DNA of 33,986 nucleotides from UHGV virus genome UHGV-0175871, one strand, 5' to 3'. The notes below the pieces were generated by a model. That model was not told the DNA's origin. It made no database searches and saw only the letters and a list, made by a program, of their open reading frames with translations. Below are positions 1-32,454 of the stretch, piece after piece. The position numbers and the translations under genes are program-made. Origin of the DNA: a virus. Numbering within the stretch: the first letter of the stretch is position 1; every line of letters begins with the position of its first letter.

Positions 1-228
1 ATGTGTTCCAACGAAAAGGTCCGTGATTGGCATCGTGCTGATGTGATTGCGGGACTTAAGAAAAGAAAGCTCTCTTTATCAGCTCTTTCTCGGCAGTTTG
101 GTTATGCGCCAACAACATTAGCTAATGCGCTAGAACGGCACTGGCCAAAGGGCGAACAGATTATTGCTAACGCCCTTGAAACTAAACCGGAAGTCATCTG
201 GCCTAGCCGATATCAAGCAGGTGAATAA
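1..228 (+). CDS. ner: Ner, DNA-binding negative regulator of early transcription
   Basis: 75-aa product [48 protein letters not shown]... matches my recollection of Mu Ner; lies immediately upstream of the transposase gene. Confidence 0.9.
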
Positions 229-229
229 T

Positions 230-2221
230 ATGGAACTTTGGGTGTCACCGAAAGAGTGTGCAAATCTTCCTGGCTTGCCGAAAACATCAGCTGGTGTGAT
301 TTATGTCGCTAAGAAGCAAGGATGGCAAAACCGCACTAGAGCAGGTGTCAAAGGAGGTAAAGCAATTGAATACAATGCTAACTCTTTACCTGTTGAAGCG
401 AAAGCGGCGTTATTGCTTAGACAAGGAGAGATTGAAACAAGCCAGGGCCGTTTTGAAATCGCCCGCCCCACGCTGGAAGCCCACGATTATGATCGTGAGG
501 TGCTGTGGAGCAAATGGGATAACGCCAGCGATTCCCAGCGCAGACTTGCTGAAAAATGGTTGCCTGCAGTTCAGGCCGCAGACGAAATGCTGAACCAGGG
601 GATTTCAACAAAAACGGCTTTTGCGACCGTTGCAGGGCATTACCAGGTCAGTGCATCCACTTTGCGTGACAAGTATTACCAGGTACAGAAGTTTGCGAAG
701 CCTGACTGGGCGGCTGCGCTTGTTGATGGACGTGGTGCATCCCGTCGCAACGTTCACAAAAGTGAATTTGACGAGGATGCCTGGCAGTTTCTGATTGCAG
801 ATTATCTGCGACCGGAAAAACCCGCCTTTCGCAAATGTTATGAGCGTCTGGAACTGGCAGCACGTGAGCATGGCTGGAATATTCCCTCCCGTGCCACGGC
901 CTTTCGCCGGATTCAGCAACTGGACGAGGCAATGGTTGTTGCCTGCCGTGAAGGTGAACATGCACTGATGCATCTGATACCGGCACAGCAGCGAACTGTG
1001 GAACACCTGGACGCCATGCAGTGGATCAACGGCGACGGTTATCTGCATAACGTCTTTGTACGCTGGTTTAACGGTGATGTGATCCGCCCGAAAACATGGT
1101 TCTGGCAGGATGTGAAAACCCGAAAAATTCTGGGCTGGCGCTGCGATGTGAGCGAGAACATTGATTCAATTCGCCTCTCGTTCATGGATGTGGTGACACG
1201 CTACGGCATCCCGGAAGATTTTCACATCACCATTGATAACACCCGTGGGGCAGCGAATAAATGGCTGACGGGGGGCGCGCCCAATCGTTACCGCTTTAAG
1301 GTGAAAGAGGACGACCCAAAGGGACTGTTTTTACTGATGGGCGCGAAAATGCACTGGACAAGCGTTGTTGCCGGTAAAGGCTGGGGCCAGGCAAAACCTG
1401 TTGAACGTGCTTTCGGTGTTGGTGGGCTTGAGGAATACGTTGATAAGCATCCGGCACTGGCTGGCGCATATACGGGGCCAAATCCGCAGGCAAAACCTGA
1501 TAACTATGGCGACCGTGCTGTTGATGCAGAGCTGTTTCTGAAAACCCTTGCTGAAGGTGTGGCGATGTTCAATGCCAGAACAGGCCGTGAAACAGAAATG
1601 TGCGGGGGCAAACTCTCGTTTGATGATGTTTTCGAGCGTGAATACGCCAGAACGATTGTGCGTAAGCCAACCGAAGAACAAAAACGGATGCTGTTACTGC
1701 CTGCCGAAGCGGTGAACGTTTCACGCAAAGGCGAGTTTACGCTTAAAGTTGGCGGCTCCCTTAAAGGCGCGAAAAACGTTTATTACAACATGGCGTTAAT
1801 GAATGCAGGCGTGAAAAAAGTTGTGGTCAGGTTTGATCCGCAGCAGCTACACAGCACAGTTTATTGCTACACCCTAGACGGTCGGTTTATCTGTGAAGCG
1901 GAATGTTTGGCACCTGTTGCATTTAATGATGCTGCGGCAGGCCGTGAATATCGCCGCCGCCAGAAACAACTGAAATCTGCAACTAAAGCAGCCATTAAGG
2001 CGCAGAAACAAATGGACGCGCTGGAAGTTGCTGAACTGCTGCCGCAGATAGCCGAACCAGCAGCACCAGAATCAAGGGTTGTTGGTATTTTCCGGCCTGT
2101 GGGTAACACAGTACGGGTTAAATATCGCACCCCCGATGATAAATACGAACCCGCTCGTGATGAATATCTGAATCAGTCACTGGATATTCTGGAACAGAAA
2201 AGACGTAAAAAAGCCATTTAA
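230..2221 (+). CDS. A: Mu transposase MuA (DDE transposase)
   Basis: 663 aa from ATG at 230 ([18 protein letters not shown]...), one base after the ner stop; the ORF-track start at 164 is an in-frame upstream extension overlapping ner. Length and sequence recall Mu A. Confidence 0.93.
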
Positions 2222-2259
2222 TTAACGTTTAAACAAAATTTAATTACGAGGTTATTCAG

Positions 2260-3219
2260 ATGAATATTTCCGATATTCGCGCAGGACTGCGCACGCTTGT
2301 AGAAAATGGAGAAACCACGCTGACACGCATCGCCAGTGAATCAGGCGTGGCCCTGAGCACAGTCAGTGGTTTTGTGAATGATAAATATAACGGCAACATG
2401 GAATCAGTCGGGCGCACACTGGAACGCTGGCTGGAAAACTATCATCGCGCAGAAGAACTGCCGGAACCCCCGCGTTTTGTGGAAACTGCAACAGCCCGTC
2501 AAATCTGGACAAGTATGCGTTTTGCTAATCTGACCGGAACCATTGCTGTTATCTGCGGTAATCCAGGAGTGGGTAAAAGCGAAGCAGCCCGTGAATTTTG
2601 TCGCACTAATAATAATGTCTGGATGATCACCATTGCGCCATCCCGTGCCAGTACGCTGGAATGTCTGACTGAACTTGCCGAAGAGTTGGGAATGAATAAT
2701 GCACCATGTCGCAAAGGGCCGCTTTCCCGTAACCTGCGTCGCCGCCTGAAAGGAACGCAGGGACTGGTCATTGTTGACGAAGCTGATCACCTTGACACCG
2801 AAGCGCTGGAAGAGCTCCGTCTGTTACAGGAGTCCGCCTGTATTGGCCTTGTTCTGATGGGGAATCACCGTGTTTATTCAAATATGACCGCTAATGGCGA
2901 CAGAACAATTGAGTTTGCCCGTCTGTTTTCCCGTATTGCAAAGCGCACAGCAATTAATAAAACCAAAGAAGACGATGTAAACGCAATTGCGGATGCCTGG
3001 CAGATTACCGGGAAAAATGAACGGGAATTATTACAGCAGATTGCACAAACGCCTGGTGCGCTCCGCATTATGAATCAAACGCTGCGCCTTGCTGTTATGA
3101 ATGCCTTCGGTAAAGGCGAACGTGTTAATGAGGATTATCTGCGTGAGGCTTACAAAGAGTTAGACCAGGACGTTGATGTTTCGATGCTGCTGGGTGTGCA
3201 AGGGGATGCTGAATCATGA
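2260..3219 (+). CDS. B: MuB, ATP-dependent target DNA activator
   Basis: 319 aa with Walker A motif GNPGVGKS and Walker B-like IVDEAD; positioned directly after A as in Mu. Confidence 0.9.
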
Positions 3220-3443
3220 TGTCACGGAATATCAAAATGGCAACGGAAGTAAAGACCTGGTTACAGGAGCGCGGCAGCCACGTCAACGAATCCTGGCTGG
3301 GCGTGGCCCGCCCGGTGCTTGAAATCACCTGCCCACCACCGGAGCTTGTCAGGAATGCTGTCAGGATTATGGAGCATAAATCCGGGGTTGCCCGTTCCGT
3401 ATGGACGGCCCGCCTTAATGGTTGCCAGATTATCTGGCGTTAA
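3216..3443 (+). CDS. kil: Small early protein at the Mu kil position (possible Kil)
   Basis: 75-aa ORF whose ATG overlaps the B stop (ATGATG); assignment is by position and size only. Confidence 0.45.
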
Positions 3444-3475
3444 TAACGGCTTATTTATTTGTGAGGAATAACAAA

Positions 3476-3745
3476 ATGGCAAAAGTAATCTTTGAATTTA
3501 ACCGCATGGAAGATGTTGAGTTTCAGAAAAAAGGAGGTTTCTTTGTAGGAATGAGTGTGCAACTGGGAGAACAGTCTCCTAAGGAGCAAATCGGACCGCA
3601 TGACGTGATGGCAGGCATTATCAAGAGCATGGCTCCTGAAATTATTGAAAAAGCAACCCAGGAGTTGTTGAAGTCAGCCAGAGAACTTGGGCTGGAAGCC
3701 GAAGGCGAGTTATTCCGGTATAACCCGGATGCAGCCAAACATTAA
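3476..3745 (+). CDS. Hypothetical early protein
   Basis: 89 aa from the internal ATG at 3476 (MAKVIFEFNRMEDV...), preceded by GAGGAA; the upstream part of the track ORF overlaps the previous gene. Confidence 0.5.
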   Translation: MAKVIFEFNRMEDVEFQKKGGFFVGMSVQLGEQSPKEQIGPHDVMAGIIKSMAPEIIEKATQELLKSARELGLEAEGELFRYNPDAAKH

Positions 3746-3761
3746 TTTCAGGAAAGGAGGC

Positions 3762-4052
3762 ATGATGATAATCCCTCGCAAAAGATGGTCACGCGAAGAC
3801 CGGGAATTTATCGAAACCAACGTCGGGAAGCTGACCGTTGAAGAAATGGCGAAAAAACTGAACGTTGCCCCAACCGCCCTACAGGCACATGCCAGAAGGC
3901 ACGGAATATCGTTGTGTGCATACCGGGTCAGTGAGCACGACAAATATTTGTGTCGTGAACTTTATAAAGAAGGCCTGGCTATTCATGTGATAGCCCAGAA
4001 GATGGAATTAAGCAATCGTGCTGTATCCGGCATTGTATACAGCGAATATTAA
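3762..4052 (+). CDS. Hypothetical early protein, possible HTH
   Basis: 96 aa from the ATGATG at 3762 with a strong AAGGAGG RBS at 3754-3760; segment LTVEEMAKKLNVAPTALQAHARRHG looks helix-turn-helix-like. Confidence 0.55.
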   Translation: MMIIPRKRWSREDREFIETNVGKLTVEEMAKKLNVAPTALQAHARRHGISLCAYRVSEHDKYLCRELYKEGLAIHVIAQKMELSNRAVSGIVYSEY

Positions 4053-4072
4053 TTAACAGGAGCTTTATTTAT

Positions 4073-4597
4073 ATGGCTAAACCAGCAAAACGAATCAAGA
4101 ACGCCGCAGCGGCTTATGTTCCGCAATCCCGCGATGCCGTGGTATGTGATATCCGCCGGATTGGTGACCTGCAACGCGAAGCGGCACGACTTGAAACGGA
4201 AATGAATGACGCTATCGCTGAGATTACGGAGAAATACGCCTCACAGATTGCACCCCTTAAAACCAGTATTGAAACCCTTTCAAAAGGCGTTCAGGGATGG
4301 TGTGAAGCGAACCGTGACGAACTGACGAACGGCGGCAAGGTGAAGACGGCGAACCTGGTAACCGGCGATGTGTCATGGCGTCAGCGCCCACCATCGGTAA
4401 GTATTCGCGGTGTGGATGCGGTGATGGAAACACTGGAGCGTCTTGGCCTGCAACGCTTTATTCGCACGAAACAGGAAATCAACAAGGAAGCGATTTTACT
4501 GGAACCGAAAGCGGTCGCAGGTGTTGCCGGAATTACAGTTAAATCGGGCATTGAAGATTTTTCTATTATTCCGTTTGAACAGGAAGCCGGTATTTAA
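4073..4597 (+). CDS. gam: Gam, host-nuclease inhibitor (Ku-like DNA-end-binding protein)
   Basis: 174 aa MAKPAKRIKNAAAAYVPQSRDAV...GIEDFSIIPFEQEAGI, matching the length and sequence I recall for Mu Gam. Confidence 0.9.
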   Translation: MAKPAKRIKNAAAAYVPQSRDAVVCDIRRIGDLQREAARLETEMNDAIAEITEKYASQIAPLKTSIETLSKGVQGWCEANRDELTNGGKVKTANLVTGDVSWRQRPPSVSIRGVDAVMETLERLGLQRFIRTKQEINKEAILLEPKAVAGVAGITVKSGIEDFSIIPFEQEAGI

Positions 4598-4695
4598 TAT
4601 CACCATTAATATTTAATTAGTTCACTTTCTTTTAATTATGGCGCGATGCGTCAGGGGATTGCTCGCGCCTGAAACAGATTACTGAGGAATAAAAA

Positions 4696-5235
4696 ATGGT
4701 TGATGCAAAAGTTCTGAACGGTGTCAGTACATTATTACGGGCTTACGGACGTCTGACCTGTGGCGTTCTGGCGGAAAAAATGAATATGCCACCTTCCTCA
4801 ATGGTGTATTTCCTGCGTGATGCGGTTGATGCCGGAGTTCTCACTGAATGCAACGGATTTTATGACGTTCCGCGCCCTCGTCCGACGCCGCCAGTAAGAC
4901 GAAACGCAACGGAGCCCCCCGCTGTTGATGATGCTCAATGGTGCGCTTTCCGCCGCTCTTTGCCCTGGCTGGAAGGCAATGCCATTCCGGCACTGGCAAA
5001 AGAATTTGCGACAGGCGTACTGACCTGCGAGTCGGTTTACATCGTTGCTGAAGTGGATGACGAGATGTGCAAACAGGGGATGCCCCGTTTTGTGATGGCG
5101 TATATCGATATCCGACTGGGACGTTTTATTTGTGGCTCCAGTGGCTGGAATATCACCGACCACGTCCTGCGCTATCTCATTCTTGATTATTCACCGGTTC
5201 CGGCGGAAACACAGGAAATCAGCGAGCATGATTAA
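4696..5235 (+). CDS. Hypothetical protein of the semi-essential early region
   Basis: 179-aa ORF with GAGGAA RBS, in the variable gam-gemA interval; no family recognised. Confidence 0.5.
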   Translation: MVDAKVLNGVSTLLRAYGRLTCGVLAEKMNMPPSSMVYFLRDAVDAGVLTECNGFYDVPRPRPTPPVRRNATEPPAVDDAQWCAFRRSLPWLEGNAIPALAKEFATGVLTCESVYIVAEVDDEMCKQGMPRFVMAYIDIRLGRFICGSSGWNITDHVLRYLILDYSPVPAETQEISEHD

Positions 5236-6159: not shown

Positions 6160-6708
6160 ATGCGCGCATCATTGATTAAATTAATTCATGTCGCCCGTCG
6201 CGATCTACAACTCGACGATGACACTTACCGCGCCTTTCTGGTGCAGTGCACGGGCAAAACCAGTTGCCGCGAGCTGTCCGTTGCACAACTGGAACGGGTG
6301 CTCGATGCCATGAAAGAGCGCGGTTTTAAGAAGCAGAAAAAACATCCCCGCCGTCGCTTTAAGGGGCATGTCACACCGCGCGAGAAGATTTACAAAATCT
6401 GGCAGCAGATGTTCCTTGATGGTTTCGTTTCCGATATCAGCGACGCTGCGCTGGACAAATACGTTGAGCGCCTGACAGCCAGACGTAATGGCGGTCAGGG
6501 TGTTTCCACGCTGGCATGGTGTCACGGGGAATCGTTGCAGGTTGTGCTTGAAACGCTCAAACAGTGGCATATGCGCTGCATCCGTGAAGCCTTTGCCCGA
6601 CATGGTGTGCCTTTACCTGTGAGCGAAACTGGGCGGGAGCTGCGCGGCTATGATGCACTGACCAGTGCGTATGCCCGTGCACGAAACAGCGGGAGAATTG
6701 CTGTATGA
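6160..6708 (+). CDS. gemA: GemA, gene expression modulator
   Basis: MRASLIKLIHVARRDLQLDDDTYRA... matches my recollection of Mu GemA; GGAGA RBS 7 nt before ATG 6160; an in-frame upstream ATG at 6145 is an alternative start. Confidence 0.8.
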   Translation: MRASLIKLIHVARRDLQLDDDTYRAFLVQCTGKTSCRELSVAQLERVLDAMKERGFKKQKKHPRRRFKGHVTPREKIYKIWQQMFLDGFVSDISDAALDKYVERLTARRNGGQGVSTLAWCHGESLQVVLETLKQWHMRCIREAFARHGVPLPVSETGRELRGYDALTSAYARARNSGRIAV

Positions 6709-7154
6709 AACAGATGAAAGAGCAGGATTTATTCGAAGACCTCCGGGACGACAGCGTTCTGGAATATCTTCATGATTACCAGGAAAACACCGCTTATCCG
6801 GCGTTACTTTCTGAACTGAACGCACTGCTGCGTAAAGAGCTGGCCCGGATTGGCGCAGACCCTGCCCATTCCCTTGAGCTGGTTGTGGCGATTTGTCGCC
6901 ATATCGGCGGGATGCAGGTTTATGTTCCGAGGGGGAATATTCTGGAGAATCTTGTCCGGGATATGCGTATCTGGCGTGATTTTAACGGCCATAATATTCC
7001 TGAACTGGTTCAGCGTTACGGGGTGACGTATAAAACCGTCTACAAGGCCATCAAACGGATGCGACGTCTGGAGCGCAATAAATACCAGCCGGATTTGTTT
7101 TACCCCTCCCCGAACCTGCCTCACCCCGTTCGTCGTCCGCCACGACGCCCTTAA
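6705..7154 (+). CDS. mor: Mor, middle-operon transcription activator (Mor/C family)
   Basis: 149 aa; the core LELVVAICRHIGGMQVYVPRG...IWRDFNGHNIPELVQRYGVTYKTVYKAIKRMRR matches Mor; extra proline/arginine-rich C-terminal tail; ATG overlaps the gemA stop (ATGA). Confidence 0.85.
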   Translation: MKQMKEQDLFEDLRDDSVLEYLHDYQENTAYPALLSELNALLRKELARIGADPAHSLELVVAICRHIGGMQVYVPRGNILENLVRDMRIWRDFNGHNIPELVQRYGVTYKTVYKAIKRMRRLERNKYQPDLFYPSPNLPHPVRRPPRRP

Positions 7155-7158
7155 TCAA

Positions 7159-7184
7159 TGAAGCCGGTAAATCCGGCTTTTTTT
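7159..7184 (+). terminator. Rho-independent terminator at the end of the early operon
   Basis: Stem AAGCCGG / loop TAAAT / CCGGCTT followed by seven T, 5 bp after the mor stop. Confidence 0.75.
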
Positions 7185-7199
7185 ATGCCTCCGGCACCA

Positions 7200-7239: not shown

Positions 7240-7836
7240 ATGGAAAATCAAAAATTCCCCCCGGCCTTTGAGCATGCGCTGAATTTCATTCTGCGTCCCG
7301 ATATCGAAGGCGTCTATGTCAATGACCCCACTGACCGTGGCGGCGAAACCAAATACGGCATTTCTGACCGCCGCGACGGTGTGATTGACGGCAAAACCGA
7401 TGTCAACGGCGACGGCAAACCGGATACCCGCATTAAGGATTTAACCCGCGAACAGGTCGCGCAGATTTACTGGCGCGATTACTGGCTGCCTGCCGGATGT
7501 GACCAGTGGCCTGATGGCGTGGCGATGTTTGTGTTCGATGCAGCGGTTCAGCATGGCGTTAAAAAAGCCATCAGAATTTTGCAGGAAGCCGCTGATGTGG
7601 ATGCTGACGGCATCATCGGCCCGCGTACCCGTAAGGCCGTGAGTCTGTCCACCCCGGACTGGTTGTTGGCCCGCTGCATTGTCCGTCGTTCCCGCTTTTA
7701 TGCCGACATCATCAAGTCAAAACCCGCCCAGGGTAAATACCTGAACGGCTGGTTTAACCGCATGGAAAAACTGACCGACGCCTGTCTGGAAATCATCGAT
7801 ACCCCTCTGGGCATCATGTCCGCCACGCGGGGGTGA
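7240..7836 (+). CDS. Endolysin, GH108 lysozyme domain plus peptidoglycan-binding domain
   Basis: N-terminal FPPAFEHALNFILRPDIEGVYVNDPTDRGGETKYGIS is the GH108 signature; C-terminal ADGIIGPRTRKAV...YLNGWFNRM resembles PG_binding_3. Confidence 0.85.
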   Translation: MENQKFPPAFEHALNFILRPDIEGVYVNDPTDRGGETKYGISDRRDGVIDGKTDVNGDGKPDTRIKDLTREQVAQIYWRDYWLPAGCDQWPDGVAMFVFDAAVQHGVKKAIRILQEAADVDADGIIGPRTRKAVSLSTPDWLLARCIVRRSRFYADIIKSKPAQGKYLNGWFNRMEKLTDACLEIIDTPLGIMSATRG

Positions 7837-7837
7837 T

Positions 7838-8065
7838 ATGGGCAAAGGCTGGGATGCCTCACTGAAAGCCGGGCGGCGTGACCGCCTGCGTCAGGAGGTT
7901 CTGCACCGCATGGCCGGAGGTTCGCCCCCGAAACCGCTGGACTATACCGGTCATGACGGCACACACGCCAGCTACTACATGCGTGGCTGGAACTCCGTGG
8001 ATACACGGGACATTTTCTGGCAGTGCCAGAAGTACAAGGAAAAACTCAATGCACAGAATGAATAG
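7838..8065 (+). CDS. Hypothetical small protein in the lysis cassette
   Basis: 75-aa ORF starting 2 bp after the endolysin stop; no recognisable family. Confidence 0.4.
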   Translation: MGKGWDASLKAGRRDRLRQEVLHRMAGGSPPKPLDYTGHDGTHASYYMRGWNSVDTRDIFWQCQKYKEKLNAQNE

Positions 8066-8459
8066 TCTTTTTGTTCGCGTTATTTACTCCCGCTTTATGT
8101 TGTGCCAGTGGTCGTTTCTGGGGCTGTCGGCAGTGCTTTTTCTGGCGAGCTGTTTTGCCGGATGGCGGGCGTTTGCGGTCATGGTGCTGGCATACGGCGC
8201 GACACTCTGCCTGATTCACAGTTTCCAGCTGGGTAACGTGCCTTATCGCCTGCAACCCAAAAGGCGCTTCCGGGCGGCCTCCCTTCGAATTGTCGTGTGG
8301 TCATGGGTGGTCTGGGCCGTTGGTTTTTTCATGCTGACATTCGGCATTCTTTATCTGAAGGAGCCTTATCAGCTGGCGTTCTGGCTGGGCGGTATCTTTT
8401 GCGCGGCACTTTATAAACATCAGCGCCGTTTTCATAAGGGGGATTCATGGATCCGTTAA
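8049..8459 (+). CDS. Multi-pass membrane protein (possible holin, antiholin or exclusion protein)
   Basis: About 136 aa from ATG 8049; three or four hydrophobic helices (LGLSAVLFLASCFAGW, VMVLAYGATLCLI, VVWSWVVWAVGFFMLTFGILYL, LAFWLGGIFCAALY). Confidence 0.5.
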   Translation: MHRMNSLFVRVIYSRFMLCQWSFLGLSAVLFLASCFAGWRAFAVMVLAYGATLCLIHSFQLGNVPYRLQPKRRFRAASLRIVVWSWVVWAVGFFMLTFGILYLKEPYQLAFWLGGIFCAALYKHQRRFHKGDSWIR

Positions 8460-9055
8460 CCCTTTCAGGCATCGCTTCTGTCCTGCTGAAAGCCGGGCCG
8501 GGGCTGATTCGTTCCGTCGGGCGCTGGTTTGGTGGCAGCACATCTGCCGCCGCTGACTCGGTGGCCGGTATGGTGGAAAGCGTCCGGGAAAGCCTGCCGG
8601 TGGCTGAACAGCAACGCATTCTGGAACAAAAACTGGTGATGCTGTCACCGGAGCAACTGATGCAGCTGGAAACCCTGAAAATTCAGCTGCAACAGCTGGA
8701 GGTGGAACGGCAGAAGCTGGTGCTGGCTGACCAGCAGGCCGCACACCACGAACAGCAGGAAACCATCCGCAATGGTGACAACGCCACGGACAGCTATGTG
8801 CGCCAGACGCGCCCGCTGCTGGCCCGCCTTTCCTGTTACAGCAGTCTGGCCTATGTGCTGTTGCTTTCCTGCGGCCAGATTGCCGGAGCCATTGCCGGTG
8901 CCAGAGGTATCACGCTGCATATGCCGTCACCGGACTGGGATATCACGCTGATGTTACTTACCCCGGCGCTGGGCTATCTCGGCGTGCGAACTCTTGACGG
9001 CTTTGCCCGTTACAGCAAGTCAAGCAAGGACAAAATTTCTGCGGGGCTGAAATGA
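8447..9055 (+). CDS. Holin-like membrane protein (possibly GTA-type 3TM holin family)
   Basis: 202 aa with central coiled-coil (LEQKLVMLSPEQLMQLETLKIQLQQLEVERQKL) and C-terminal hydrophobic helices; follows a GH108 endolysin, as in GTA lysis modules. Confidence 0.45.
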   Translation: MDPLTLSGIASVLLKAGPGLIRSVGRWFGGSTSAAADSVAGMVESVRESLPVAEQQRILEQKLVMLSPEQLMQLETLKIQLQQLEVERQKLVLADQQAAHHEQQETIRNGDNATDSYVRQTRPLLARLSCYSSLAYVLLLSCGQIAGAIAGARGITLHMPSPDWDITLMLLTPALGYLGVRTLDGFARYSKSSKDKISAGLK

Positions 9056-9279
9056 CCGACGAAATCGACCGCATCAGTGAAGTGGTTCTGAACGAACGTC
9101 AGAGCGTCGTTAAAGCCTGGCAGACGCGGACAAAAGAAGCGCCCCACAGCCGGGGCTTCTGCAATGACTGCGGGAACGTTATTCCGGCACAGCGCCTTGC
9201 GGCGCTGCCGGATGTGGTGACCTGTATTGACTGTCAGCAGATACGGGAACACAGGAGGAAATCGTGTCCTGGGAAATGA
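9052..9279 (+). CDS. TraR/DksA-family C4 zinc-finger protein
   Basis: 75 aa with CNDCGNVIPAQRLAALPDVVTCIDCQ (CxxC-17-CxxC) typical of phage TraR-like proteins. Confidence 0.7.
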   Translation: MTDEIDRISEVVLNERQSVVKAWQTRTKEAPHSRGFCNDCGNVIPAQRLAALPDVVTCIDCQQIREHRRKSCPGK

Positions 9280-9569
9280 TCAGAGCCAACTGGCCCATTC
9301 TGTGGGCATTGCTGATGACAGGAATAAACCTGCTTCAGCTGATTCTGGCGAAAACCTACGTCAAACGCGAAGAGTTTGATTCACTCCGTTCCCGCATGTC
9401 GGTGATGGAAAGCCAGGTACACCATTTACCCGACCGTGATGAGTTCCACCGCCTGCAACTGGATATCAGCAACCTGCGGGGAGAAATCAAAGAGCTGGGG
9501 CCATCCATCCGCCAGGTATCCCGCATCAGCGATTTGTTATTAGAGAACGAGTTAAAGGAAAAAAAATAA
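9264..9569 (+). CDS. Small membrane-anchored coiled-coil protein (DUF2730-like)
   Basis: GTG start with AGGAGG RBS; N-terminal TM helix WPILWALLMTGINLLQLIL followed by coiled coil. Confidence 0.5.
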   Translation: MSWEMIRANWPILWALLMTGINLLQLILAKTYVKREEFDSLRSRMSVMESQVHHLPDRDEFHRLQLDISNLRGEIKELGPSIRQVSRISDLLLENELKEKK

Positions 9570-9864: not shown

Positions 9865-10164
9865 ATGGCCCGAAAACTGAAGCCGTTAAGTCGCGGAGAA
9901 CGGGCCGTCGTGCGGCAGCTGGCGTACTGTCTTGTGCTCGCGGATATTGAGCAAAACGCCATTGTCCGTGCATACGAACAACAGACCGGAAAGCCCTGGA
10001 ACCCGGATGCACCGGATACCCCCATGAAACGTGCCCTGCGTTCATCACCGGCATGTGCGCGGCTGTGGAAGCTGCTGGGTAAGGATATCCGCTCCGTTCG
10101 CGAAGAAATATACGCCGGTCTGAAAACACCGGGAACTGAAGACGGGGGCCGTCGTGAACCGTAA
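9865..10164 (+). CDS. Hypothetical protein
   Basis: 99-aa ORF starting 3 bp after the previous stop. Confidence 0.4.
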   Translation: MARKLKPLSRGERAVVRQLAYCLVLADIEQNAIVRAYEQQTGKPWNPDAPDTPMKRALRSSPACARLWKLLGKDIRSVREEIYAGLKTPGTEDGGRREP

Positions 10165-10301
10165 AAAGAATCCGATAAGTAAAGCGTCCCGTGATGAACT
10201 CCGCCGTCTGGCGCACAACCTGACATGGCGGGAAATCCAGAGTGGCGCACTGAAATCTGCATACGAAAGTTTACAGCGTAGTGAGCAACAGGAGGGCACA
10301 C

Positions 10302-10883
10302 ATGGAAAATGAACAACGCCCCACCCGTGGCCGTCTTTCCAAAGTGGATTTACTCCCGGACAGCATCCGGGAGCAGTTGCATCAGATGCTGCGGGAAAAG
10401 CGGCACACGCAGGAGGAAATCCGCGAAGCCATCAACGCCCTGATTGACGAACACAACCTGCCGGAAGAGATGCAGTTAAGCCGGACGGGCTTAAACCGCT
10501 ATGCCATCCGCATGGAAAAAGTCGGGGCAAAAATCCGTGCCTCCCGCGAAATGGCCGAAGTCTGGGCGGCAAAGCTGGGTTCCGCGCCGACGTCAGACGT
10601 CGGCAAACTGCTGATGGAGTTTGTAAAAACGCTGGCTTTTGAAACGTCCATGTCGATGGCAGAAGACGACAAGCCTGTTGCACCGAAGGCGCTGGGGCAA
10701 CTGGCGCTGGTTGCCCAGCGTCTGGAAGCGGCAGCCATGACCAGCCATAAACGCGAGAAAGCGATCCGTGATGCGTTTGCGCAGGAGATGGCAGAGAAAA
10801 CCGAAGAACTGGTCAGAACGGGCGGTCTGTCAGGTGGTGCGGCTGACACCATCAAACGAGACATTCTGGGGATTAGCGTATGA
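10302..10883 (+). CDS. Terminase small subunit-like DNA-binding protein (DUF3486-like)
   Basis: 193 aa from ATG 10302 with GGAGGG RBS; N-terminus RGRLSKVDLLPDSIREQLHQMLRE; directly precedes and overlaps the large terminase gene. Confidence 0.65.
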   Translation: MENEQRPTRGRLSKVDLLPDSIREQLHQMLREKRHTQEEIREAINALIDEHNLPEEMQLSRTGLNRYAIRMEKVGAKIRASREMAEVWAAKLGSAPTSDVGKLLMEFVKTLAFETSMSMAEDDKPVAPKALGQLALVAQRLEAAAMTSHKREKAIRDAFAQEMAEKTEELVRTGGLSGGAADTIKRDILGISV

Positions 10884-14858: not shown

Positions 14859-14879
14859 GGGGGTTCTTCCCGTTTTCAG

Positions 14880-14905
14880 TGAAGCCGGTAAATCCGGCTT
14901 TTTTT
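14880..14905 (+). terminator. Rho-independent terminator, exact 26-nt copy of the one at 7159
   Basis: TGAAGCCGGTAAATCCGGCTTTTTTT identical to 7159-7184; lies between F and I. Confidence 0.7.
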
Positions 14906-14954
14906 CTGCCTTCCGCATACTGACCGTCGGTAACCCCAGACGACGGAGACTGAC

Positions 14955-15917
14955 ATGAAACCGGAACTGCTGGCGCTGTGTTTTTCCCTGCCAGAACCCA
15001 TCCCTGAGCTGACACCTGCTCAACTGCCGGAATGGCTTGAACTCGTTCCTGCGGGTGAGTTCACCGGGCGCGATGGCCGGACGTGGATTAACCGCAATCC
15101 GCATGAGGTGGTTGCCCGTTCGTCCGACATCAAAATTCCGGTGGACATTGAACACGCCACCGAAATTAAAGGGCAACGCGGTGATGAAGCCCCGGCGTAT
15201 GGCTGGGTGGAAGAACTGCGGGTGACAGACAGCGGCACCATTGAAGGCCGTGTTGTCTGGAGCGAATACGCCCGGTGGATGCTGAGCGAGCGCCGCTACC
15301 GCTATTACAGCCCGGCGTTTTTCCATGACGCGGAGGGTGTGGTGACGCGCCTGTCCAGCGTCGGGCTGACCAACAAACCTAATCTGGACTTTCCTGCACT
15401 GAATACGGAGAAAAACCCGATGACAGTACCTGTGCAAATCACCGGCCTGCTTGGGCTGGCTGAATCTGCCACGGTGGACGATACCGTGGCCGCCATTAAA
15501 CAACTTCAGGAGAACGAACAGGTGGCGCTGAACCGCGCACAGACACCTGACCTGACGAAGTTTGTACCGGTGGAAACCCACAATCTGGCACTGAACCGTG
15601 CCGAAACCGCAGAACAACGCCTTCAGCAACTGGAAGAGAAGGAAGCAGAAGCGCTTGTGGATGCGGCCATCGAAGCCGGAAAAGTGGCCCCGGCAAACCG
15701 TGACATGTTCCTTGCCACCTGCCGCACGGAAGAAGGCCGCAAACAGTTTGCGGAGTACACCAAAGGTGCACAGCCGCTGGTGAACAACGACAAGCCCAGC
15801 CAGGGCAAGGATAAACCCGCGCAGACACTGACCGACGCCGAACTGGCGATGTGCCGCAGCATGGGTATTACCGGGGAAGAGTTCCTCGCCGCTAAACCTA
15901 AACAGGAGAATAACTGA
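14955..15917 (+). CDS. I: Head maturation protease/scaffold, Mu I-like
   Basis: 320 aa; immediately upstream of the major capsid gene; coiled-coil scaffold-like C-terminal half. Confidence 0.7.
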   Translation: MKPELLALCFSLPEPIPELTPAQLPEWLELVPAGEFTGRDGRTWINRNPHEVVARSSDIKIPVDIEHATEIKGQRGDEAPAYGWVEELRVTDSGTIEGRVVWSEYARWMLSERRYRYYSPAFFHDAEGVVTRLSSVGLTNKPNLDFPALNTEKNPMTVPVQITGLLGLAESATVDDTVAAIKQLQENEQVALNRAQTPDLTKFVPVETHNLALNRAETAEQRLQQLEEKEAEALVDAAIEAGKVAPANRDMFLATCRTEEGRKQFAEYTKGAQPLVNNDKPSQGKDKPAQTLTDAELAMCRSMGITGEEFLAAKPKQENN

Positions 15918-28862: not shown

Positions 28863-29393
28863 ATGGAACTCAGAAACGTCACGCGTTATTACCCGGAAGA
28901 GATGCCTTATGGTGAAAACATTCAGTATTTCCGCAGTGAAGACGGACAGGATTTTTATGAATCACTGGATAAATTCACGAAGAAATACAAATTGTGTATT
29001 CACCCGGAAACCGGCGTGATTTATTCAATGGCGGAAGACGTGTCCCGTCTTTATCCGGCTGGCTTCACCATTGTGGAAGTGGATGAACTGCCGGAAGGTT
29101 TTGGCATTGAAGCCTGCTGGTATTACAAAGACGGCGAAGTGCTGCCGGTTCCTGTTGATTATTCGCAACTGGCAGAAAAACAACGCCAGAGCCTGCTGAA
29201 TGAAGCGAAGGACATCACCTCCGACTGGAAAACCGAGCTGGAGCTGGGCACCATCAGCGACGATGATAAAGCGCGTCTTACGCAGTGGATGGCATATATC
29301 AAAGCGGTAAAGGCTCTGGATTTAAGCACCGTTACTGACGAAGCCTCCTTTTACTCCATCAACTGGCCGGAGCGTCCCGATGCCGCAGCTTAA
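28863..29393 (+). CDS. Tail fibre assembly chaperone (Mu U / lambda Tfa family)
   Basis: 176 aa from ATG 28863 with AAGGAG RBS; C-terminal ...DDDKARLTQWMAYIKAVKALDLS typical of Tfa proteins. Confidence 0.7.
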   Translation: MELRNVTRYYPEEMPYGENIQYFRSEDGQDFYESLDKFTKKYKLCIHPETGVIYSMAEDVSRLYPAGFTIVEVDELPEGFGIEACWYYKDGEVLPVPVDYSQLAEKQRQSLLNEAKDITSDWKTELELGTISDDDKARLTQWMAYIKAVKALDLSTVTDEASFYSINWPERPDAAA

Positions 29394-32300
29394 AGGTGTG
29401 ATTAAAACGCCCACGGGAGAACCGCTGGGTGGCGCAACCATTACACTGACCTCCCTGCACAACCGTGCAGGGATTCTGAAAAGTGTTTTCAGCCATGTCA
29501 CCACACAGAACGGGGAATATGACTTCACCGTTCTGCCGGGTGTGTACAGCGTTCGCCTGACACAAAGCACACAGCGCCTTTCAGAAATCGGTGTCATCCG
29601 CGTTTATGAAGATTCAGCGGACGGTTCGCTGAATGATTTTCTGGGCGCAACCGATATTGACCTGCGCCCGGAAGCCCTGAAGAAATTCGAAGAGCTGGCG
29701 CAACAGGCGCAGCAAAGCGCAGAAAAAGCAGGAGAGCACGCCACCGCTGCTGAACAGGCCCGCCAGGATACAGAAGCGCTCGCCGGGGAAATACAGCAGG
29801 ATGCAGAAGAAATCGCGGGTAATGTGCAGAAAGCTGAAGAGCTGGCCTCTGAGACCAACCAGAATGCCGCCCGGGCAGAACAGGCGGTCAAAGATGCCGA
29901 TAAGATAGTCCAGAAAGCGGTCGATAAACTTGCTGATGCCGCAACGCTGACCGGTGAGGCAAAAGCCAGCGCCGAAGCGGCAGCAAAAAGCGAGCAGAGC
30001 GCGAAACAGCACAGGGACGAGGCGCAACGGATAGTTGATGACCTGAAGGGAACCAACGCCAGCACGACGCAAAAAGGCCTGGTGCAACTCTGTAGTGATA
30101 CAGACAACGACAGCGAAGAACTGGCCGCCACACCAAAAGCCGTCAAAACCGTCATGGACGAGACGAAAACAAAAGCGCCACTGGACAGCCCGGCATTCAT
30201 CGGCACGCCCACCACACCAACCCCGCCGGACGATGCGACCGGGCTGGAGATGGCGAACGCGGCATTTGTTCGCAAACTGCTTGCTGCGCTGGTTGACTCG
30301 TCACCGGAAGCCCTGGACACACTGAACGAGCTGGCAGCGGCGCTGGGCAATGACCCGGAGTTTGCGACAACAATCTTGAACGCGCTGGCGGGTAAACAAC
30401 CACTCAGTGACGTGTTAACCGCAATCAGTAATCTGGAAGAACGGGCAGATAATCTTCTGTGCTTTAATCATGACGGAAATGCTTCATTGTCTCCGCTGTC
30501 AGAAAAAGCCCGGTCACTGCTGGCACAGGCCACAGCGGAAGCCATGCGCAATGAGCTTGAGCTGAAAAGCGCAGCGGTAAGGGATATTCAGATAGACCTT
30601 TACGACAGCATGGAAGGCCGTGTTGCGCTTCCCGGTGCGTATGGTTACGGAATGACGGACGCCGGAGCACGTTCAATTATTGCCAGCGATATGGCGACTG
30701 TAGCCAGAACCGCTCACAACCTGCACCCGGGACGGTATTACACCTTTTCCACACAAACGGAAAAAACAACCGGAATAACAGAAATTATCTGGCTGGATAA
30801 TGGCCGGGGCGACAAAACCAGTCAGACAGCAACAAAGCTGGTTCTGTTCTTTGGAAAAGACGGACGGATTCTTATGACCGTTCGTGGCGATAATATCTCC
30901 GCCCCGGTCACCTGGACGAATCTGACGCCACAACTGGGCAATGCAGCACAAAAGGATGCGCAGGAGAGTATTTACGACCGCACCGAAGGCCGTCTGGCGG
31001 TTCCTGGCATGTTCGGATTCGGGAAAATATTTTCCAGCGGCGACAGGACCGAGTTTAAAACAGAGGCCGATTTTCTCCGCTGGGTAAAAACGGCAAAACC
31101 CGGACGCTATGCCGTTTATGCAGATACAAATGCGGTAATACAGGGCGTGCTGTTCAAGGGTACCGTTGAAATTATCTGGCCGGAACCTCAAACCAACCCC
31201 AATCCGGCATGTGTGGCTAAAATCATTATTTTTTACGGTATTAACGGCCACATTTATTACAATCGCTACTGGACTACCGGAGATGGTTATCTGGTTGGCT
31301 GGGAAAACCTGAAAGTCAACGAGGTTTCACTCCGGGCACTGATTGAAACCCGTGCGCCACTGAACAGTCCGACACTGACCGGAACGCCGTCCACGCCAAC
31401 ACCACCAGATGATGCAGCAGGTAATGAAATAGCCAATGCGGCGTTTGTCCGCAAACTGCTTGCTGCACTGGTTGACTCGTCACCGGAAGCCCTGGACACG
31501 CTGAACGAGCTGGCAGCGGCGCTGGGTAATGACCCGAACTTTGCGACGACAATCATGAACGCGCTGGCCGGTAAACAACCGCTGAACGATGTGCTGACGG
31601 CTATCAGTGAACTGACGCAACGGGCAGATAATCTTCTGTGCTTTAATCAGGACGGGAATGCTTCACTGTCTCCACTGTCAGAAAAAGCCCGGCTGCTGCT
31701 TGCTCAGACTACAGCGGAAGACATGCTGTCTGTTCTTGAGTTGCAAAAGAATACGTACAGCGCCCAGAGTGATATTTATGACCGGGCGGAAGATAAACTG
31801 GCTCTTCCTGGTGCATTCGGATTTGGTTATCCGTTTGGAAAAGAAGACCAGCTCACCTTTAAAAACACATCGGAGCTGACCACGTGGGTAACAAACGCTT
31901 ATCCGGGACGTTATGCGGTAACCGTCCCTAATCAGGGAACAATCATACCTGGTGTTTATTTTACGGGTATTCTTGATGTTATCTGGCAGATGAACCAGTA
32001 CGAAACAAAGCCCCCGTCAGATGCTGCAAAATGCATAATGTTTTATGCAGGAAACGGTGATATCTGGTTTAACCGATATATTTACGGGCGTCTTGTTGGC
32101 TGGGAGCGAATAAAGATATCCACAGCCGATATTTATAATGTTATGGGGGGGACCATCAGCAATGAGTGGGGAGACCCTGATGTTGGTGGACTGATTATTG
32201 CTGCATACCAGGGAACGACTGACGGAGATACAAAAATCAAGCTTGTGAGAGGGCAATATTACGCAGGCTCACGGCTGGGGCCGGTGGGAATTTCAGCGCC

Positions 32301-32454
32301 CTACAATCCAGCCGGAACGTATTCATCAAGCCCGCAATTCTACGTTATGGGAAATGCAGGTCATTCATTACCGGGTACATATCGCGCCCTGTCCGGGGTA
32401 ACAAACACCTATGGTTCCGACGCGATGATTGGGCTTTTTATTCGCACAGCGTGA
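29380..32454 (+). CDS. Side tail fibre protein, lambda Stf-like, with internal tandem duplication
   Basis: 1024 aa; N-terminal ...IGVIRVYEDSADGSLNDFL; Ala/Glu/Gln-rich coiled shaft; conserved TQKGLVQLCS...LAATPKAVKTVMDETKTKAPLDSPA...LDTLNELAAALGNDPEFATT..NALAGKQP block occurring twice. Confidence 0.85.
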   Translation: MPQLKGVIKTPTGEPLGGATITLTSLHNRAGILKSVFSHVTTQNGEYDFTVLPGVYSVRLTQSTQRLSEIGVIRVYEDSADGSLNDFLGATDIDLRPEALKKFEELAQQAQQSAEKAGEHATAAEQARQDTEALAGEIQQDAEEIAGNVQKAEELASETNQNAARAEQAVKDADKIVQKAVDKLADAATLTGEAKASAEAAAKSEQSAKQHRDEAQRIVDDLKGTNASTTQKGLVQLCSDTDNDSEELAATPKAVKTVMDETKTKAPLDSPAFIGTPTTPTPPDDATGLEMANAAFVRKLLAALVDSSPEALDTLNELAAALGNDPEFATTILNALAGKQPLSDVLTAISNLEERADNLLCFNHDGNASLSPLSEKARSLLAQATAEAMRNELELKSAAVRDIQIDLYDSMEGRVALPGAYGYGMTDAGARSIIASDMATVARTAHNLHPGRYYTFSTQTEKTTGITEIIWLDNGRGDKTSQTATKLVLFFGKDGRILMTVRGDNISAPVTWTNLTPQLGNAAQKDAQESIYDRTEGRLAVPGMFGFGKIFSSGDRTEFKTEADFLRWVKTAKPGRYAVYADTNAVIQGVLFKGTVEIIWPEPQTNPNPACVAKIIIFYGINGHIYYNRYWTTGDGYLVGWENLKVNEVSLRALIETRAPLNSPTLTGTPSTPTPPDDAAGNEIANAAFVRKLLAALVDSSPEALDTLNELAAALGNDPNFATTIMNALAGKQPLNDVLTAISELTQRADNLLCFNQDGNASLSPLSEKARLLLAQTTAEDMLSVLELQKNTYSAQSDIYDRAEDKLALPGAFGFGYPFGKEDQLTFKNTSELTTWVTNAYPGRYAVTVPNQGTIIPGVYFTGILDVIWQMNQYETKPPSDAAKCIMFYAGNGDIWFNRYIYGRLVGWERIKISTADIYNVMGGTISNEWGDPDVGGLIIAAYQGTTDGDTKIKLVRGQYYAGSRLGPVGISAPYNPAGTYSSSPQFYVMGNAGHSLPGTYRALSGVTNTYGSDAMIGLFIRTA
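30175..30546 (+). repeat. Copy 1 of the ~372-bp direct repeat inside the tail fibre gene
   Basis: Aligns in frame with 31354..31725, about 80-90% identity by eye, with perfect blocks of 26-32 bp. Confidence 0.85.
31354..31725 (+). repeat. Copy 2 of the ~372-bp direct repeat inside the tail fibre gene
   Basis: See copy 1; offset 1179 bp (393 codons). Confidence 0.85.

Follow-up and report, generated by a model that had tools for sequence, protein, structure and literature searches.

We analysed positions 7240–9055 of the virus genome UHGV-0175871, a stretch of DNA of 33,986 nucleotides (nt) that is referred to here as the window and that represents a Mu-like prophage of Escherichia coli. The four genes at these positions probably form the lysis end of the late operon and would encode a canonical holin-endolysin system, not the holin-less route of phage Mu. 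As judged from its sequence, the first product is a soluble endolysin composed of a GH108 muramidase and a PG_binding_3 domain, with no export signal. The last product, a protein of 202 amino acids (aa), is a probable holin on the grounds of homology, gene context, and elimination, and its sequence relatives place it, at the family level, with the gene transfer agent (GTA)-type holins of three transmembrane helices (3TM). The functional unit probably extends past 9055 to the gene for a DUF2730 protein.

The endolysin

In the profile search, the 198-aa product matched both GH108 (PF05838; E 1e-23, 84.1 bits, cut-off 21.2) and PG_binding_3 (PF09374; E 3e-17, 63 bits, cut-off 24.6) well above the Pfam cut-offs, which bears out the original prediction, made from the DNA alone, of a GH108 endolysin with a peptidoglycan-binding domain. 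The protein also matches the endolysin family PHROG 315 (E 3e-54) and the NCBIfam model 'holin-associated N-acetylmuramidase' (E 1.5e-20), the latter at 74 bits, which is below the equivalog cut-off of 240. Glu23, in the sequence EGVY, aligns on the E of the EGGY motif in PDB 2IKB/2IS5; following the Pfam family description, we take the Glu of this N-terminal motif to be essential for catalysis in GH108. The second Gly of the motif is Val in the window enzyme, Ser in that of Klebsiella, and Gly in that of Yersinia phage vB_YpM_5.

No signal-anchor-release (SAR) segment was detected in the 198-aa protein, its maximum 15-residue hydropathy within the first 40 residues being 0.75 compared with 1.71 in Mu gp22. 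Eight related GH108 proteins likewise have no N-terminal hydrophobic segment, and this measure did pick up the SAR segment of Mu Lys, used as a control. The window yielded no further muralytic enzyme. As a separate observation, residues ~51–62 (7390–7425) form a 12-residue insertion relative to 2IKB, 'DGKTDVNGDGKPD', which resembles a calcium-binding loop of dockerin or EF-hand-like type and matches Dockerin_1 weakly (E 0.088). Klebsiella phage Kp4866-3 shares this insertion, and in vB_YpM_5 the N-terminal part of it can be recognised.

The 202-aa holin candidate

When 1.84 billion cluster representatives were searched exhaustively with phmmer, the 202-aa protein fell into a family of 137 clusters, mostly 165–215 aa in length. 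Among 75 aligned members, 32 match PF11351 (GTA_holin_3TM) at E<0.01, the best at 8.4e-9. Three residues (R122, P123, and R181) are invariant in this alignment, and a D-x-Y-V-[RK]-x-T-R-P motif is found just before the first strong transmembrane helix. The AlphaFold model, calculated with the 75-member alignment as input, is all-helical (pLDDT 91.8), and its best viral Foldseek match is a protein named 'Holin of 3TMs, for gene-transfer release' (E 3e-7, probability 1.0, TM-score 0.46–0.50). The protein consists of an N-terminal helix, a long helical or coiled region, two transmembrane helices (~124–152 and 165–185), and a basic C-terminal tail. Median net charges in the family are −1 for the interhelix loop and +2 for the C-terminal tail; the tail of the window protein has a net charge of ~+3 to +4. 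With basic residues taken to mark the cytoplasmic helix ends, the long helical region would be cytoplasmic and only ~12 residues would be periplasmic.

The gene is in the same operon as the GH108 gene, third after it, and the two are directly adjacent in many relatives. In unrelated phages, homologues come directly after an endolysin of one of three enzyme types: a GH108 endolysin in Shewanella phage MuM16-2, Vibrio phages LP.1 and 1.028.O, and the elements L011, L013, and L014, an amidase in Vibrio phage D65, and an M15 peptidase in Janthinobacterium phage Donnerlittchen. The order in L011 is GemA-Mor-GH108-homologue-TraR-DUF2730-gp26-gp27 with nothing between, the homologue being 30% identical by phmmer and 28% by tblastn, and metagenomic Mu-like elements have the order Mor-GH108-homologue-TraR-DUF2730. 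Apart from the homologue and the DUF2730 protein, no membrane protein is called between the endolysin and packaging genes of these minimal cassettes. According to Chamblee et al. 2022 (PMC9239132), the DUF2730 protein of Mu (gp25) shows no holin behaviour, being neither lethal nor triggerable. Since the endolysin is soluble and Mu's DUF2730 protein is not a holin, the 202-aa family is left as the putative hole-former by elimination. Among the plausible genes of the window, the only membrane proteins are the 202-aa protein, the DUF2730 protein, and the 136-aa product of the gene directly upstream of the holin candidate.

Two other assignments involving the 202-aa gene were rejected. The protein is not a suitable substitute for a spanin, given the ~12 periplasmic residues in the charge-based topology, and a Pro- and Cys-rich ORF embedded in the gene (8772–8951), considered as an o-spanin, has neither a lipobox nor a signal peptide and is not conserved in Klebsiella. 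RefSeq names the allele of E. coli RIVM_C019217 (3708–4316) 'twin-arginine translocase TatA/TatE family subunit'. This allele matched none of the Tat models of NCBIfam or Pfam, and the label looks like a mis-annotation of a putative holin.

Table 1 Features of the lysis cassette and its surroundings in the window
Feature	Positions	Strand	Basis
Mor-family transcription activator	6705..7154	+	Pfam Mor E 3.6e-30; 63% identical to Mu Mor, 32% to Mu C
Hairpin with T-run (7160–7186) and dyad AGCCGGTAAATCCGGCT (7162–7178)	7148..7196	+	Terminator-like match; conserved in relatives
Soluble endolysin, predicted GH108 N-acetylmuramidase + PG_binding_3 (198 aa)	7240..7836	+	Pfam, PHROG, hydropathy
Mu gp18 (E18) orthologue, small soluble three-helix protein (75 aa)	7838..8065	+	Mu gp18 similarity, PHROG 2121
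Four-helix inner-membrane protein at Mu gp19 position (136 aa)	8049..8459	+	Hydropathy
Probable holin, divergent PF11351 GTA_holin_3TM lineage (202 aa)	8447..9055	+	Profile, fold, gene neighbourhood
TraR/DksA-type C4 zinc finger at Mu gp24 position	9052..9279	+	Pfam zf-dskA_traR E 1.2e-11
DUF2730 protein, Mu gp25 releasin family	9264..9569	+	Pfam DUF2730 PF10805 E 1e-30
Second copy (86% identical) of the 49-nt hairpin/dyad repeat	14869..14917	+	Before head-protease-like gene at 14955

Organization of the cassette

The four open reading frames (ORFs) listed by the original prediction are present (Table 1), and RefSeq PGAP has the identical four gene calls in near-identical E. coli prophages (97.9% nt identity). 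Each is preceded by a Shine-Dalgarno sequence, and neighbours overlap by 4–17 nt or sit 1 nt apart, suggesting one translationally coupled unit that runs on into the TraR, DUF2730, and gp26-like genes. The ratio of nonsynonymous to synonymous polymorphism (pN/pS) is 0.08–0.44 per gene against two E. coli alleles, with small substitution counts, which indicates real coding genes under purifying selection.

The cassette had been described as a mosaic module swap relative to Mu. The description holds in that positions 7240–9055 have no nucleotide similarity to Mu outside the gene for the 75-aa protein; it does not extend to this gene, which is an orthologue of Mu gp18. The 75-aa protein is 68% identical to Mu gp18 over 69/72 residues (E 2e-30), both proteins match PHROG 2121 (E 6e-39 and 3e-36, respectively), and homologues carry the family PF26867 in precomputed tables. 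Three helices make up the AlphaFold model (pLDDT 85.6), for which no fold match reached significance. A gp18-like gene lies between the GH108 and holin-like genes in Klebsiella, Shewanella, and Vibrio Mu-like phages. Mu retains gp18, a middle-operon gene, without GH108 or a holin, and a lysis-specific role for the 75-aa protein is therefore rather unlikely; its earlier nomination as a lysis regulator of the swapped module is not upheld. The PHROG 2121 profile spans the 75-aa and 202-aa proteins, which are in the same frame, but a fusion or split of gp18 and the holin candidate was rejected because none of the 137 clusters exceeds 230 aa. An apparent 'fusion' of gp18 and the 136-aa protein in the relative P0267 looks like a frameshifted sequence.

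The 136-aa membrane protein

The 136-aa product has 3–4 strongly hydrophobic helices by hydropathy, in agreement with the multi-pass membrane protein that had been proposed, and its N- and C-termini are inside by charge. Its family comprises only 13 clusters in 5.8 billion proteins, and a single match, Klebsiella phage Kp4866-3, was obtained among 50,697 phage records. The protein is 31% identical to its Klebsiella positional homologue, compared with 51–81% for the flanking genes. By these sequence comparisons, the gene is lineage-restricted and fast-evolving.

That the 136-aa protein is the real holin, and the 202-aa protein an antiholin or other regulator, seems to us quite improbable. The small size, the four hydrophobic helices, the basic cytoplasmic loops and C-terminal tail, and the overlap with the next gene in the cassette would suit a holin. 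The protein also starts with Met-His-Arg-Met (8049–8060), conserved in the E. coli alleles, which resembles the dual-start (holin/antiholin) motif of lambda S107/S105. However, this start is lost in Klebsiella, the family is tiny and divergent as described above, and the gene is absent from L011, the metagenomic elements, and the Vibrio and Shewanella phages, which share the endolysin and holin-like genes and must still release a soluble GH108 enzyme. The positional analogue in Mu, gp19, has no holin behaviour and is dispensable for lysis, as stated by Chamblee et al. (PMC9239132).

The 136-aa protein may modulate the holin, as an antiholin, or may be an accessory product unrelated to it; an antiholin role is plausible by analogy with the gene layout of phage ICP1, whose antiholin is ArrA. 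The protein shares its position, size, and four-helix topology with Mu gp19, and the only sequence in common in BLASTP is a short 'F.GWRA' motif. Homology to Mu gp19 was not supported by families (PHROG 12596 versus 4975), BLASTP (E 0.18), or hhalign (probability 7%), and the protein is not assigned as a homologue of Mu gp19 or of ICP1 ArrA, as neither is supported by sequence comparison. A role as a lipoprotein or unimolecular spanin, for which the lipobox-like LASC was considered, was rejected because more membrane helices follow and the Cys is not conserved (LAGF in the relative P0262 and LLFC in Klebsiella).

Points against the holin-endolysin reading and other explanations

Several observations weigh against the holin-endolysin reading. 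The 202-aa protein itself scores below the gathering cut-off of PF11351 (E 7e-4, 20.5 bits, cut-off 24.8) while its relatives match, so that the link to this family is transitive, not direct; the likeness to GTA-type holins in the original prediction thus stands for the family, by profile and fold, and not for the protein's own score. The N-terminal helix (3–21) is weakly hydrophobic (1.33), is 40–43% Gly/Ala/Ser/Thr, and contains Lys15 and a conserved Gly-Pro, which makes the count of three transmembrane helices uncertain. In Donnerlittchen, a LydA-type holin (Phage_holin_3_3, E 6e-13) is encoded besides the homologue; the family thus has a rival for the holin role in this phage and could be regulatory. 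The similarity between the 202-aa family and ICP1 ORF137 is weak (BLASTP E 0.004; hhalign 73%, over the N-terminal ~60 residues only), and ORF137 gave no PF11351 match in the Pfam search. The Muvirus vB_YpM_5 of Yersinia (MT374853, 2948–4876; mor-GH108-gp18-gp20-C-Lys-gp23-gp24-gp25) has a 74%-identical GH108 and gp18 besides a Mu-type Lys, and hence two different muralytic enzymes, indicating that a GH108 gene in this place can be accompanied by another lysis enzyme. Finally, no spanin lipoprotein was found in the window by a lipobox scan from every start codon on both strands, which recovered Mu gp23.1 and its vB_YpM_5 copy as controls, and the lysis pathway as described is incomplete in this respect.

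Some of these points would fit a second explanation, in which the 202-aa family is an accessory (an antiholin or membrane-bound regulator) and the hole-former is an unrecognised protein, possibly the DUF2730 protein acting in a non-Mu mode. The sub-threshold score and the recognised holin of Donnerlittchen are consistent with it, as are the position of the family gene, always after and never before the endolysin, and the constant nearness of DUF2730 in Mu-like elements. We consider this explanation unlikely, however. There is no other recognised holin in L013, where GH108 and the homologue are followed by terminase genes and no DUF2730 is called, or in Vibrio phage D65, where an amidase and the homologue are followed by a 58-aa gene. 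The few periplasmic residues exclude a spanin-like role in the charge-based topology, the DUF2730 protein of Mu is not a holin as noted above, and TeaA of ICP1, a PF11351 member by remote homology, behaves as a holin that collapses the membrane potential and is triggered by dinitrophenol (DNP) (10.1101/790493).

The lack of a spanin and the gene order of vB_YpM_5, where GH108 and gp18 lie between mor and C and are followed by a Mu-type SAR lysozyme, spanins, and gp25, would also fit a third explanation, in which the cassette is not the working lysis system, the prophage being cryptic or GH108 being an accessory 'middle' gene. This is very unlikely, as the window has no other endolysin, the genes are intact and under purifying selection, and the element is complete in its structural genes and reaches from ner to mom. 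Moreover, in the plaque-forming Vibrio Mu-like phages of Table S1 of Chamblee et al. (PMC9239132), the same cassette is present and is the only lysis module.

We propose a lysis pathway for the holin-endolysin reading that we prefer. A single Mor-type activator would switch on a Pm-like promoter located after the early-operon hairpin and produce one coupled transcript for GH108, gp18, the 136-aa and 202-aa proteins, TraR, DUF2730, and the packaging genes. The muramidase, without an export signal, would build up in the cytoplasm. The 202-aa holin would reside in the inner membrane with its N-terminal helix outside or peripheral, the helical region in the cytoplasm, two transmembrane helices, and the basic tail inside. 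At a critical level it may form holes, collapsing the membrane potential and giving the muramidase access to the wall; this step is suggested by homology, context, and elimination. More speculatively, the 136-aa protein upstream and/or the DUF2730 protein downstream might modulate the timing. The outer membrane step, for which no spanin is encoded, would be either unassisted or carried out via an unrecognised factor.

TraR and DUF2730 proteins

The TraR-type protein scores 62.8 bits against TIGR02419 (cut-off 59.7). Its gene is kept between the holin-like and DUF2730 genes in relatives, and it is probably not a lysis protein. The DUF2730 gene is the fifth downstream of GH108, and its product scores 106 bits (cut-off 24.9) and is 27% identical to Mu gp25 (E 5e-12). 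It has a transmembrane helix (11–29) followed by basic residues, consistent with an N-out, C-in orientation, and then a cytoplasmic coiled coil. The window has no cognate SAR endolysin for it, the sole endolysin being soluble. Chamblee et al. (PMC9239132) state that the releasin model does not apply to pairs of DUF2730 with soluble endolysins and that the role of DUF2730 in the GH108-paired Vibrio phages is unknown.

The Mor activator and the sequence before the cassette

The Mor homologue is the probable activator of the promoter before the cassette. No second Mor/C homologue was found in the window by tblastn, and there is no C gene; the C-terminal tail of the Mor homologue (YQPDLFYPSP) is closer in look to that of C (HQPDLFSPETP) than to that of Mor. 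The 85-base pair (bp) gap between mor and GH108 retains the Mu hairpin AAGCCGG-N5-CCGGCTTTTTTT, whose sequence is conserved in Mu, vB_YpM_5, and Kp4866-3. In Mu, Mor binds a 16-bp dyad centred at −43.5 of Pm, in the interval just downstream of mor (PMC4390567, PMC4287176). From sequence and position, we infer that the dyad AGCCGGTAAATCCGGCT corresponds to this published Mor site and that the 7148–7196 element would serve as both the early terminator and the activator site of the lysis operon. No promoter was found before the cassette by a scan for the sigma-70 consensus, as expected if the promoter is activator-dependent.

The 17-nt dyad has an exact second copy at 14883–14899, also followed by a T-run, within the repeat that precedes the head-protease-like gene (14955–15917, matching Mu gene I by tblastn). 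The copies before both operons suggest that one Mor-type activator drives the lysis/packaging operon and the head operon. With no C gene, a repeated dyad, and similarity to Mu at the right end that begins only inside com, there seems to be a two-step cascade, in which the early genes lead to Mor and Mor to all late genes, in place of the three steps of Mu.

The element and its relation to Mu

A tblastn search with all Mu proteins identified the window as a Mu-like E. coli prophage that spans ner (98.7% identical) through mom (96.7%) and carries a complete set of structural genes. The early genes are 77–98% identical to Mu at the protein level and the late and structural genes 25–60%; positions 1–5204 are 88–90% identical in nucleotide sequence. 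The same search detected no counterpart in the window of Mu Lys, gp23, gp19, gp20, or C, nor of the gin invertase or the invertible G-segment.

The GC content steps near position 7000 from ~0.48–0.51 in the Mu-like early region to 0.55–0.61 in the late region, coinciding with the loss of similarity to Mu and the onset of ~70% nt similarity to Klebsiella phage Kp4866-3, and marks a recombination junction near gemA/mor. At the other end, com/mom are ~89% nt identical to Mu, and the similarity starts only inside com, indicating that the C-dependent Pmom region has not been retained. At a site that is empty in Mu, between the gp26-like and gp27-like genes, the window has two adjacent genes of 99 aa (9865–10164) and 52 aa (10154–10312), whose products are paralogous in the first 38 residues (39% identity, E 4e-8). 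The 1024-aa tail-fibre gene (29380–32454) contains 300-nt direct repeats (30175–30474 and 31354–31653), 1179 nt apart and 83% identical. No RNA families were found anywhere in the window with Rfam.

Distribution and significance

The 7240–9055 stretch is present in 58 of 5426 complete E. coli genomes at 60–98% nt identity (best 97.9%, strain STEC383), and the Mu C-lys-spanin block in 41 of the same 5426. Among E. coli genomes, the GH108 cassette is no rarer than the module of Mu itself. As a canonical-looking holin-endolysin module that is common in Mu-like phages and has in part been catalogued before, it is largely ordinary.

According to Chamblee et al. (PMC9239132), Mu was reported in 2022 as the first holin-less tailed phage, and the role of DUF2730 with soluble endolysins was posed as a question. 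The cassette combines a soluble GH108, a probable PF11351-type holin, and DUF2730, with no spanin, in the standard laboratory host E. coli, and it adjoins an early region 88–90% identical to Mu, which offers an E. coli test bed accessible by ordinary genetics. The questions that become testable are whether the holin-less state is peculiar to Mu, what the ancestral role of DUF2730 was, and how the outer membrane is passed without a spanin. For annotation, members of the 202-aa family, now 'hypothetical' or 'TatA/TatE', may be named putative holins, and the 75-aa protein 'Mu gp18-like'.

One might further suppose that the GH108/holin cassette is ancestral in Mu-like phages, that the holin-less pathway of Mu is derived, and that DUF2730 first acted on the N-terminal helix of the holin; we regard this as doubtful. 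If true, Mu gp18–gp20 would be a remnant at the old site after the gain of the C/SAR-lysozyme/spanin block, and DUF2730 would have been a timing control on a SAR-like N-terminal helix, later re-used by Mu as a 'releasin' for its SAR endolysin.

Comparison with known systems

By the gene numbering of the ICP1 paper (10.1101/790493), we take ORF137 to be TeaA and ORF138 to be the antiholin ArrA. The endolysin and the phage type of ICP1 differ from those of the window, and ORF138 has no similarity to the 136-aa protein. ORF137 is built like the 202-aa protein: the N-terminal helix, which ends in WFGG, is followed by a helical region and then by two transmembrane helices and a basic tail. Immediately before the holin gene, both systems have a gene for a multi-helix membrane protein.

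In the GTA of Rhodobacter capsulatus (RcGTA), the lysozyme rcc00555 and the holin rcc00556 are the source of the PF11351 name (PMC3423380). The window resembles RcGTA in combining a muramidase with a PF11351-type membrane protein, a likeness by profile. It differs in that the window endolysin is far below the equivalog cut-off and the holin-like protein is under that of PF11351; rcc00555 is itself presumably a GH108 enzyme.

As described by Chamblee et al. 2022 (PMC9239132), Mu has the SAR endolysin gp22, the spanins gp23/gp23.1, the releasin gp25, and no holin. The original prediction had correctly described Mu Lys as a SAR endolysin of the T4-lysozyme fold; gp22 has the T4-type triad E-X8-D-X5-T (PMC9239132). 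The window is like Mu in phage type and host, in having Mor, gp18, gp26, gp27, and a DUF2730 gene within five genes of the endolysin, and in the hairpin/dyad after mor. Unlike Mu, it has a soluble GH108 in place of the SAR T4-type lysozyme together with a probable holin, it has no C, spanin pair, or gp20, and gp19 is replaced by a four-helix protein that is unrelated or unrecognisably diverged. In vB_YpM_5, a gp20 homologue (95% identical) lies unannotated at 3712–3828, and gp19 is absent.

The closest counterparts in gene order are Vibrio phage 1.028.O._10N.286.45.B6, Shewanella phage vB_SspM_MuM16-2, and Klebsiella phage Kp4866-3, which share with the window the order Mor, GH108/PG_binding_3, gp18-like, 202-aa-type, TraR, DUF2730, gp26, gp27, and terminase. 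The swap is no peculiarity of this element: the order Mor, GH108, holin-like, TraR, and DUF2730 is common in Mu-like phages of several genera. The GH108-DUF2730 pairs of Vibrio phages are already in Table S1 of Chamblee et al. 2022, and the searched passages of that paper name no holin for the Vibrio, Shewanella, or Klebsiella phages (PMC9239132). Among these phages, only the E. coli and Klebsiella elements have the extra four-helix gene between gp18 and the holin-like gene. The holin-like protein of the window is 39–70% identical, and its GH108 enzyme 44–67% identical, to those of these phages.

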